From: a virus
Lineage: Duplodnaviria > Heunggongvirae > Uroviricota > Caudoviricetes
IMG/VR virus record: IMGVR_UViG_3300044981_000022
Span: 64,001-118,838 of that record
Length of the DNA: 54,838 bases
Reading direction: 5' to 3' (one strand)
The notes beneath the pieces were generated by a model that had not been told where the DNA came from, made no database searches, and saw only the letters and a program-made list of their open reading frames with translations. This document shows, piece after piece, positions 842-2,382 of this stretch; the first letter of the stretch is position 1, and each line of letters opens with the position of its first letter. Made by a program: the position numbers and the translations under genes.

Positions 842-847
842 TCTTAA

Positions 848-1180
848 TGGTAAGCCGGACAATCGCGGAGCAAATGTAAGTGCGCTTCGAGGAAGTTCAG
901 GACTACACAGACAGAGAGCCGTGGAAGTTGCGGACGCAGTAATGCGATGGGTAAGCCTCGGTAGTTTCACTAGGAAGAGCGGTTTCAGCGAAAGCTGAAA
1001 GGCCCGTGAACGGTGAAATTCATTGGAGCCGGGAAACTCCACTCTCGTAGCAATCTCAAATAGGGCTGGAGCCAGTCTGAGGCGATGATAGCCGGGTTGA
1101 GAGCTTAGACGGATGGTTGTCATTCGCTGTATCTGGGTAAAACCGATTGGCGATACAGAATCCTGGCTATAGGCTAACCA
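848..1180 (+). ncRNA. rnpB: RNase P RNA, bacterial type A-like, phage-encoded
   Basis: CR-I GAGGAAGTTCAGGA (889-902) pairs with CR-V ACAGAATCCTGGCTAT (1155-1170) to form P4. Also seen: P1 TGGTAAGCC/GGCTAACCA, P2 GACAATC/GGTTGTC, P3, P9 CGCA-GTAA-TGCG, P12 TTTCAGC-GAAA-GCTGAAA, the GGGAAACTCCAC...GTAGCAA segment, L15 GGT, and CR-IV AGACGGATG. Confidence 0.92.
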
Positions 1181-1238
1181 GTAAGATATTATATTTGCGT
1201 AAACGGACATATATGGATGTTTAAGCGAATAAGATCGC

Positions 1239-1324
1239 GGAGCGGTGGCGAAATGGTAGACGCACGAGTTTGCTAAACTCGCAACCGCAAGGTTGTGCAG
1301 GTCCAAGTCCTGCTCGCTCCGCCA
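1239..1324 (+). tRNA. tRNA-Ser(GCT)
   Basis: Acceptor GGAGCGG/TCGCTCC, G73, encoded CCA, anticodon loop TT-GCT-AA, long variable arm; T-loop TCCAAGT (C55). Confidence 0.9.
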
Positions 1325-1333
1325 AAATTTTAT

Positions 1334-1422
1334 GGAGTGCGGCGACCGATGGCGGTCAACTGTCTTGAAAACAGCGCCTCGTTACTTTGTAGCGGGACAG
1401 AGTTCGATTCTCTGGCTCTCCT
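1334..1422 (+). tRNA. tRNA-Ser(TGA), atypical (T73, no encoded CCA)
   Basis: Acceptor GGAGTGC/GCTCTCC (one T-T mismatch), D-stem GACC/GGTC, loop CT-TGA-AA, 8-bp variable stem, T-arm CAGAG-TTCGATT-CTCTG. Confidence 0.8.
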
Positions 1423-1423
1423 C

Positions 1424-1510
1424 GGAAGACAGCGCAGACGTTCTGCAAACGGTTTCGAACACCGTGCTATCCTGAAAAGGATAACTGTTAAACTCAGTTC
1501 TCTTCCTCCA
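1424..1510 (+). tRNA. Non-canonical tRNA-Ser(CGA)-like, probable 8/4 (allo-tRNA-like) fold
   Basis: GGAAGACA/TCTCTTCC + T + CCA; D-arm GCAG-ACGTT-CTGC; anticodon arm ACGGT-TTCGAAC-ACCGT; variable arm TATCCT-GAAA-AGGATA; T-arm ACTG-TTAAACT-CAGT. Confidence 0.72.
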
Positions 1511-1551
1511 GTTTCACGGTCCGAGCGTCTAAAAGCGCGGAGACCGCCAAA

Positions 1552-1626
1552 GCATCGGAAACCAATCGGCTAGGTAGAGGTCTGCAAAACTTCTTTTGGT
1601 CAGTCCGACTCTGACCCGGTGCTCCA
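1552..1626 (+). tRNA. tRNA-Cys(GCA)
   Basis: Acceptor GCATCGG/CCGGTGC, T73 (Cys identity), CCA; loop CT-GCA-AA; T-loop TCCGACT (C55). Confidence 0.88.
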
Positions 1627-1633
1627 AGTTTGT

Positions 1634-1708
1634 TGCCATGTCGTCCAAATGTGAGGACAAGCGGCTTTGACCCGCTGAATCCTGGTTAGAATCCAGGCGC
1701 GGCATCCA
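1634..1708 (+). tRNA. tRNA-Gln(TTG) with U19-A56 elbow
   Basis: Acceptor TGCCATG/CGCGGCA, CCA; AGCGG-CTTTGAC-CCGCT; D-loop AAATGTGA; T-loop TTAGAAT. Confidence 0.85.
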
Positions 1709-1716
1709 GTTTCTGT

Positions 1717-1791
1717 TCCAATGTCGTTCAAATGCGAGGACAAACGATTCTGAATCGTTGAATAAAGGTTGGAATCCTTTCGCTGGAACCA
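1717..1791 (+). tRNA. tRNA-Gln(CTG) with C19-G56 elbow
   Basis: Acceptor TCCAATG/CGCTGGA, A73, CCA; AACGA-TTCTGAA-TCGTT; D-loop AAATGCGA; T-loop TTGGAAT. Confidence 0.85.
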
Positions 1792-2293: not shown

Positions 2294-2382
2294 CGGGGCG
2301 TAGGTTCGTAACTTGGTAGCGATCCGCTTTTGGAAAGCGGTGCGGAAACGCCTTGGAGGTTCAAATCCTTCCGTCCCGACCA
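2294..2382 (+). tRNA. tRNA-Pro(TGG) with long variable arm
   Basis: C1-G72, A73, CCA (Pro identity); CCGCT-TTTGGAA-AGCGG; extra arm GCG-GAAA-CGC; T-loop TTCAAAT. Confidence 0.85.

Follow-up and report, generated by a model that had tools for sequence, protein, structure and literature searches.

Several tRNA genes in the array of an uncultured phage carry an elbow pair between positions 19 and 56 that is not G-C but another Watson-Crick pair, confirming the swap described in the original prediction. G19-C56 is taught as a constant of tRNA and serves as the stacking platform for RNase P, the ribosomal L1 stalk, the A-site finger and T-box leaders. Judging from the sequences, we consider it likely (a probability of about 0.75) that these are working phage tRNA genes that keep a Watson-Crick 19:56 elbow pair by compensatory substitution. 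The tertiary pair would have been replaced by paired substitutions, to U-A in tRNA-Gln(UUG) and probably in tRNA-Ser(CGA), and to C-G in tRNA-Gln(CUG) and tRNA-Arg(CCU).

The window, the whole stretch of 54,838 nucleotides that was analysed, covers the right-hand 54.8 kb of an IMG/VR phage genome that is complete at 118.8 kb and has direct terminal repeats. The genome has a single tRNA array, at genome 56.4-66.6 kb, in which ARAGORN called 31 tRNAs by default and tRNA-Cys(GCA) in addition when run relaxed. The swapped genes of the window lie in the order Ser(CGA) - Cys - Gln(UUG) - Gln(CUG), and they and their neighbours are listed here in window coordinates except where genome coordinates are stated.

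847 to 1185, plus strand: RNase P RNA, type A (Rfam RF00010, 100.2 bits); inside the array, and present in all six related arrays.
1239 to 1324, plus strand: tRNA-Ser(GCU), a context gene with canonical G19-C56 and with C55 (ARAGORN, Rfam).
1334 to 1423, plus strand: tRNA-Ser(UGA), canonical G18-G19 and C56, 4-nt D loop AUGG, without encoded CCA; adjoins Ser(CGA); its D stem covaries across six phages.
1424 to 1510, plus strand: probable class II tRNA-Ser(CGA), T loop TTAAACT, U19-A56 (T1441 or T1442 with A1490); fold z = -3.0, 29.3 bits with the Ser(UGA)-family covariance model.
1552 to 1626, plus strand: tRNA-Cys(GCA), D-loop GG, C56 and C55 (T loop TCCGACT), called by ARAGORN at a relaxed threshold; between Ser(CGA) and the Gln pair.
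1634 to 1708, plus strand: tRNA-Gln(UUG), U19-A56 (T1652 with A1688), encoded CCA, U1-A72, A5-C68 mismatch; Rfam 48.2 bits.
1717 to 1791, plus strand: tRNA-Gln(CUG), C19-G56 (C1735 with G1771), paralogue of Gln(UUG); Rfam 45.1 bits.
Genome 63760-63836, ending 165 bases upstream of the window: tRNA-Arg(CCU), C19-G56 (ARAGORN; Rfam 53 bits).

Gln(UUG) has an 8-nt D loop, AAATGTGA (G1651, T1652), and the T loop TTAGAAT (A1688), giving U19-A56. Its paralogue Gln(CUG) has an 8-nt D loop, AAATGCGA (G1734, C1735), and the T loop TTGGAAT (G1771), giving C19-G56. Because the D loop is 8 nt long the numbering is unambiguous, G18 being G1651 or G1734, position 19 T1652 or C1735, and position 56 A1688 or G1771. 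The positions first proposed for the two Gln genes were exact, as assessed by ARAGORN, Rfam and an alignment of orthologues. In Arg(CCU) the D loop is AAATGCACA and the T loop TTGGAAT, again C19-G56. All three scored above the curated RF00005 cut-off of 29 bits, as elongator tRNAs do, with 48.2 bits for Gln(UUG), 45.1 bits for Gln(CUG) and 53 bits for Arg(CCU); these values of 45-53 bits fall inside the range of the other tRNAs of the array (36-64 bits). The T-loop motif (U54-A58, U55, purine 57, G53-C61) is present in all four swapped tRNAs, Ser(CGA) included (TTAGAAT, TTGGAAT, TTGGAAT and TTAAACT). The G19-C56 identity of an elongator tRNA is lacking (U19-A56 or C19-G56 in its place), with pairing potential kept in every case. 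Every tRNA of this phage without C56 is also without G19 and has the complementary base instead, while the remaining tRNAs have GG and C56, with the sole exception of a Leu(UAG) that has a single G.

Cloverleaves and encoded CCA ends were intact in the swapped tRNAs. An alignment of 12 Gln orthologues revealed an invariant G18 and a 19:56 pair that was GC in 10 sequences, CG in one and UA in one, and therefore 100% paired. In the same alignment 96% of stem cells were paired and 20 of the 22 pairs had changed on both sides, which no shuffle equalled. The claim that the double changes are matched and do not reflect decay was upheld by these intact cloverleaves, CCA ends and T-loop motifs, by covariation in every Gln stem, and by the complementarity of 45 of 49 non-C56 tRNAs described below. 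The alignment also showed U1-A72 to be invariant (12/12 phage Gln tRNAs). Acceptor pair 5:68 is non-standard in 5 of the 12, being A-C in both Gln genes of this phage.

Ser(CGA) was more difficult to detect. ARAGORN made no call on 1424-1510 at any threshold, RF00005 gave no match there at E<=1, and there was no match to RF01852. The computed fold of the sequence is a clean cloverleaf (-26.9 kcal/mol, z = -3.0) with a D arm consisting of a 5-bp stem and the loop CGU, the anticodon loop TTCGAAC and the T loop TTAAACT. It can be drawn either as 7/5, with a C7-C66 mismatch, or as 8/4, with a C-C mismatch in the stem; in the minimum free energy structure the acceptor stem comprises 6 bp and the T stem 4 bp. 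Ser(UGA) next door shares this compact layout of the D arm, with 5 bp and the loop AUGG, and its version recurs in six phages with stems that covary. When a covariance model was made from the six Ser(UGA) orthologues alone, Ser(CGA) scored 29.3 bits (E ~2e-7); only Ser(UGA) itself scored higher, and the bona fide Ser(GCU) reached 26.5 bits. Ser(CGA) shares with the class II tRNA-Ser of the clade the match to this model, a long variable arm and a Ser anticodon, and is probably a real class II tRNA with U19-A56. The model aligns AUGG of Ser(UGA) to ACGU(u) of Ser(CGA), G1440-U1441 to G18-G19 and A1490 to C56, which makes T1441/A1490 a reasonable reading of 19:56. The U19-A56 pair proposed for this gene is thus reproduced by the Ser(UGA)-family alignment, with a less certain register, T1441 or T1442, in a D loop of 3-5 nt; both are U. 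No orthologue of Ser(CGA) was found in the five related phages. Its acceptor stem (GGAAGAC...) is identical to that of Ser(UGA) in one of them, G002. Ser(UGA) itself (window 1334-1425 when followed to its junction) lacks CCA in this phage alone, ending in ..CTCC-TC with Ser(CGA) starting at once.

The array has other unusual features. The Leu(UAG) with a single D-loop G (genome 61787-61871, upstream of the window; GAAYGCATA) has C56, and the same is seen in Leu(UAG) of G002 (L034). In both, either G18 or G19 is absent, as in the bldA tRNA-Leu of Streptomyces. Five tRNAs of this phage and eight of G002 (L034) have C55 where U55 is otherwise universal (T loop TCCGA..), with the D-loop GG kept. 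The five lie at window 1239-1324 and 1552-1626 and at genome 56473-56547, 57208-57282 and 60364-60437. C55 is not convertible to pseudouridine. It is common to Phe and Ile(UAU) across phages and is therefore a stable state; in an IMG/VR control sample, C55 was found in 8 of 367 tRNAs and G55 in 7 of 367. A tRNA-Pro(UGG) of 89 nt (window 2294-2382) has a long extra arm and is class II-like, Rfam aligning part of it only (24.8 bits). The long Pro(UGG) was called also in G003 and G005, and in G002 and G004 at a relaxed threshold. In bacteria a long extra arm of the class II kind is normally found in Leu, Ser and Tyr tRNAs only. A tRNA-Ala(UGC) upstream of the window (genome 58388-58462; L293:3388-3462) was called at a relaxed threshold, neither ARAGORN by default nor Rfam calling it; it has the G3-U70 identity pair, an encoded CCA and a non-canonical T loop, AGCGTAG. 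In the RNase P RNA, two UGAAA T-loop-like motifs in the specificity-domain stretch are present in this phage only.

Five further contigs related to this phage were found by a terminase search (36-63% identity). Each has the tRNA array in the same gene order, with RNase P RNA between Arg(CCU) and Ser(GCU). Cys(GCA) has orthologues in G002, G003, G005 and G007. The in-array ORF at 293-841 has a single homologue, an ORF of G002 that occupies the corresponding slot and is 31% identical; it had no relative in IMG/VR and only a self-match in a collection of 5.8 billion proteins. No close relative of the phage was found from which the swaps could be dated or intermediates caught. An exact-pattern scan for the Gln D arm gave no match, and blastn against cultured phages gave a single irrelevant match of 84 bases.

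The orthologues of Gln(UUG), Gln(CUG) and Arg(CCU) have the canonical G19-C56 in all five relatives, indicating that the swaps arose in the lineage of this phage. Swaps of other tRNAs were found in three of the relatives:

G004: Arg(ACG), GU with A56 (U-A).
G005: Lys(CUU), GA with U56 (A-U).
G007: Lys(CUU) and Arg(UCG), GC with G56 (C-G).
G007: Glu(CUC) and Met, GU with A56 (U-A).
G007: Gly(UCC) and Cys, GA with U56 (A-U).

G002 and G003 have no swapped tRNA. The swapped tRNAs of the relatives have canonical orthologues in other arrays, except for Lys(CUU), for which G005 and G007 have different swaps. Altogether the six syntenic arrays contain 12 non-C56 tRNAs among ~190, Ser(CGA) not being counted. 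In 11 of the 12 the base after G18 is complementary to position 56, all three alternative Watson-Crick pairs are represented, and the swaps amount to at least ten independent events. Covariation of positions 19 and 56 across homologous arrays was observed, without any link to the presence of rnpB. The Leu(UAG) of G007 (L054:5302-5388, relaxed threshold) has the D loop GAATTACCAGA and the T loop TGGAAGC, and with G56 and no G18 it cannot be scored by the position rule; it may have undergone a double rewiring, to A18-G55 and C19-G56.

The swap was sought across IMG/VR with a pattern in which an encoded CCA follows a T arm with G56. The 80 loci that were retrieved contained 81 matches, of which ARAGORN identified 21 as tRNAs with a G56 T loop. 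Loops were assigned by ARAGORN together with a simple position rule. In these G56-selected loci C19 was present in 22 of 24 scorable G56 tRNAs, A19 in 6/6 U56 tRNAs and U19 in 3/3 A56 tRNAs. As a control, a scan for the canonical T arm provided one sample of 80 loci, 74 of which yielded tRNAs, with 367 neighbouring tRNAs not selected by the pattern. Only five of the 367 (1.4%) were non-C56, and all five had the matching G-N step in the D loop. When the clade and the two IMG/VR samples were pooled, 45 of 49 non-C56 tRNAs were complementary at position 19 and none had G19 (0/49). In a shuffle test the maximum was 35, with 0 of 100,000 shuffles reaching 45, which excludes a chance coincidence of the two positions. 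The swapped tRNAs of the pool keep U54 (49/49), A58 (49/49) and U55 (48/49), as well as R57 and Y60. No secondary co-change was seen at positions 17, 20, 54, 55 or 57-60 or in D-loop length when swapped and canonical tRNAs were compared. There was no specificity for amino acid or anticodon, the swaps spanning Arg, Lys, Gln, Glu, Met, Gly, Cys, Leu, Asp, Thr, His, Ser, Pro and Ala. The coupled swap, as read from these sequences, recurs in many unrelated phage tRNA clusters, suggesting that pairing of the two positions is required whereas their G-C identity is not.

Swaps are unevenly distributed among genomes. Non-C56 tRNAs make up ~6% in the clade as compared with 1.4% in the control (p = 0.003). 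In this phage they are 4 of 34 (p = 0.004 against 1.4%), or 3 of 33 when Ser(CGA) is left out (p = 0.02), and in G007 7 of 33 (p = 8e-6). Neighbouring tRNAs in the G56-selected loci were non-C56 in 13 of 168 cases, as compared with 5 of 367 in the control (p = 4e-4); swaps cluster by genome. Two unrelated complete phages, L061 (IMGVR_UViG_3300043788_000060) and L066 (IMGVR_UViG_3300050821_003228), had a non-G-C 19:56 pair in 8 of 20 and 5 of 16 tRNAs respectively. L066 comes from the same metagenome as the phage studied here.

We infer that the swapped tRNAs fold and function, and propose that the replacement is isosteric, any Watson-Crick pair having the same geometry. The L-shape would thus be preserved together with the elbow's flat outer face, and excision from the array transcript and use in translation would still be possible. 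Pyrimidine-19/purine-56 probably arose once in a Gln ancestor, because the two Gln genes of each phage resemble each other. The history would then comprise one flip in Arg(CCU) and one in the Gln ancestor, Ser(CGA) being a lineage-specific extra gene. The Gln paralogues could subsequently have split into C-G and U-A forms, which are reachable through a G-U wobble intermediate; the flip from G-C to C-G would have to go through a mismatch. G-C identity appears to be normally favoured, given that it is kept in ~98.6% of phage tRNAs in the control, far more than stem pairs are. The preference may be weaker in some phage-host systems, this clade included, and compensated swaps would be fixed more often there. 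C56 contributes to recognition by TruB and TrmA. Altered T-loop modification is plausible on this account, and also because C56 is a determinant for s2T54 formation (PMC7912444); a likely side effect of the swaps would be the loss of those T-loop modifications that need C56.

The original prediction went further, and offered two explanations: that the swapped tRNAs evade host nucleases or modification enzymes, or that they are a private class co-adapted with the RNase P of the phage. As regards the second, the gene for the RNase P RNA does lie inside the array, ~240 bases upstream of Ser(CGA), the clade that bears it has more swaps than the baseline (~6% against 1.4%, p = 0.003), and the 19:56 platform is where RNase P of bacteria docks (PMC3664808). 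However, all six related arrays contain RNase P RNA, two of them (G002 and G003) being free of swaps, and the ~90% of this phage's tRNAs that keep G19-C56 must use the same enzyme. Conversely, G008, G009 and G010 are complete, swap-rich phages with no match to RF00010, and no RNase P RNA was found in L061 or L066. Swaps are thus not confined to phages with rnpB, nor do they always accompany it. An alignment of the six phage RNase P RNAs revealed a conserved catalytic domain and, where docking on the elbow is expected, a stretch that is hypervariable both in length (~20-80 nt) and in sequence; no conserved element in this specificity-domain stretch tracks swap content. Any Watson-Crick pair offers a stacking platform at 19:56. 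[quoted passage not shown] The occurrence of swaps is independent of phage rnpB, and co-adaptation with the phage enzyme is very improbable. Decay of the genes into pseudogenes, or a chance coincidence of two independent mutations, would fit with the fast evolution of phage tRNA genes, with the A5-C68 mismatch in the Gln genes and with the failure of standard tools to find Ser(CGA). It can be given next to no weight in view of the intact T-loop motifs and CCA ends and the strong compensatory covariation in the stems, and it is ruled out statistically by the 19:56 complementarity (45/49; 0/100,000 shuffles).

Two other readings draw on the strong clustering of swaps by genome. The host tRNAs might carry the same swaps, the phage having taken its copies from the host or adapted them to the host machinery. 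We regard this as unlikely: the five relatives with the same gene order are canonical for exactly these tRNAs, and the canonical orthologues place the origin of the swaps inside the phage lineage, arguing against import from the host. Alternatively, the swaps might be selected for because a host factor that recognizes C56, G19 or the elbow acts poorly on the phage tRNAs that carry them; such a factor could be a modification enzyme, or a defence tRNase aimed at the T loop or elbow. The swaps might also serve a phage factor that tells phage from host tRNAs. A selective agent acting on whole genomes would produce the clustering that is seen. There is precedent in phage tRNAs that escape anticodon nucleases by loop mutations (PMC10264068), and at least one T-loop modification, s2T54, is stated to depend on C56 (PMC7912444). 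Such a disguise is conceivable but improbable. Only a minority of tRNAs is swapped in each phage, the swapped isoacceptors vary from phage to phage and fall into three pair types, so that no common target is visible, and the report on anticodon nucleases makes no mention of the T loop, D loop or elbow (PMC10264068). Relaxed constraint accounts for the scatter over isoacceptors and three pair types at least as well as evasion does. A near-neutral reading alone, however, does not explain why swaps cluster in genomes such as G007 (7/33), L061 (8/20) and L066 (5/16). The cause of this clustering may be a weaker preference for G-C, as proposed above. It is also possible, if doubtful, that elbow swapping is an adaptive strategy of whole genomes, in which a candidate factor reading G19-C56 or C56 selects for re-paired elbows. 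It might be a defence tRNase, an enzyme that modifies the T loop, or one with which the phage depletes host tRNAs. If so, it would explain the pile-up of swaps to 30-40% of an array, and would add a second tRNA battleground to that of the anticodon loop.

With compensatory substitution in working tRNA genes as the preferred reading, the phage arrays provide a natural series that contains all three alternative pairs and shows strict covariation, suggesting that evolution demands the pair and not its G-C identity. Natural swapped pairs are conceptually expected for a Watson-Crick tertiary pair, and the observation is solid and useful to tRNA biologists. The swapped tRNAs are ready-made natural substrates for asking whether RNase P, TruB, TrmA, the CCA-adding enzyme, the ribosome and defence tRNases read base identity at the elbow. 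Their uneven spread, from a baseline of 1.4% up to 30-40% of certain arrays, is a hint that a factor specific to the host or the phage may be at work. There is also a practical consequence for annotation, in that tRNA finders and models that hard-code GG and TTC penalize such genes or overlook them; in this array Ser(CGA) escaped detection, and Cys(GCA) was called only once the threshold had been relaxed.

Reduced or missing elbow contacts are a feature of animal mitochondrial tRNAs and of tRNA-Pyl. Reviews call G18 and G19 'constant' (PMC9976931), and a full-text literature search found no paper on natural non-G-C 19:56 pairs in phage or bacterial tRNAs. The string 'C19-G56' does occur in one paper (PMC10944890), apparently as a slip, since the tRNA in question is an ordinary one in the A site.

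Compared with the canonical elbow of elongator tRNAs (G18-U55, G19-C56, U54-A58; RF00005), the phage tRNAs share the cloverleaf, the 7-nt T loop with U54, U55, R57 and A58, G53-C61, G18 and a Watson-Crick 19:56 pair; they differ in that this pair is U-A or C-G, with the purine on the T-loop side. In the class II genes of the clade, Ser(CGA) and Ser(UGA), the 4-5-bp D stem, the 3-4-nt loop and the long variable arm resemble those of tRNA-Sec and allo-tRNAs; Ser(CGA) may also have the 8/4 or 9/3 arrangement of those tRNAs, but can be drawn equally well as 7/5 with a C-C mismatch. The tRNAs with which phages escape anticodon nucleases likewise depart from the host-like consensus at conserved positions, although there the changes lie in the anticodon loop and here at the elbow (PMC10264068). 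A functional departure from the constant set G18-G19/U55-C56 is known from the bldA tRNA-Leu(UAA) of Streptomyces coelicolor, which is without G19 (PMC6614811); in bldA-type tRNAs the contact is lost, whereas in the phage it is kept by a compensating partner. A further parallel is provided by engineered 19:56 double mutants such as the A19-U56 pre-tRNA-Gly of T. thermophilus (PMC4797305), in which both sides were changed and Watson-Crick pairing was kept, as in the phage. Those mutants are laboratory constructs, whereas the phage swaps are natural and recurrent, and include the flipped orientation Y19-R56.
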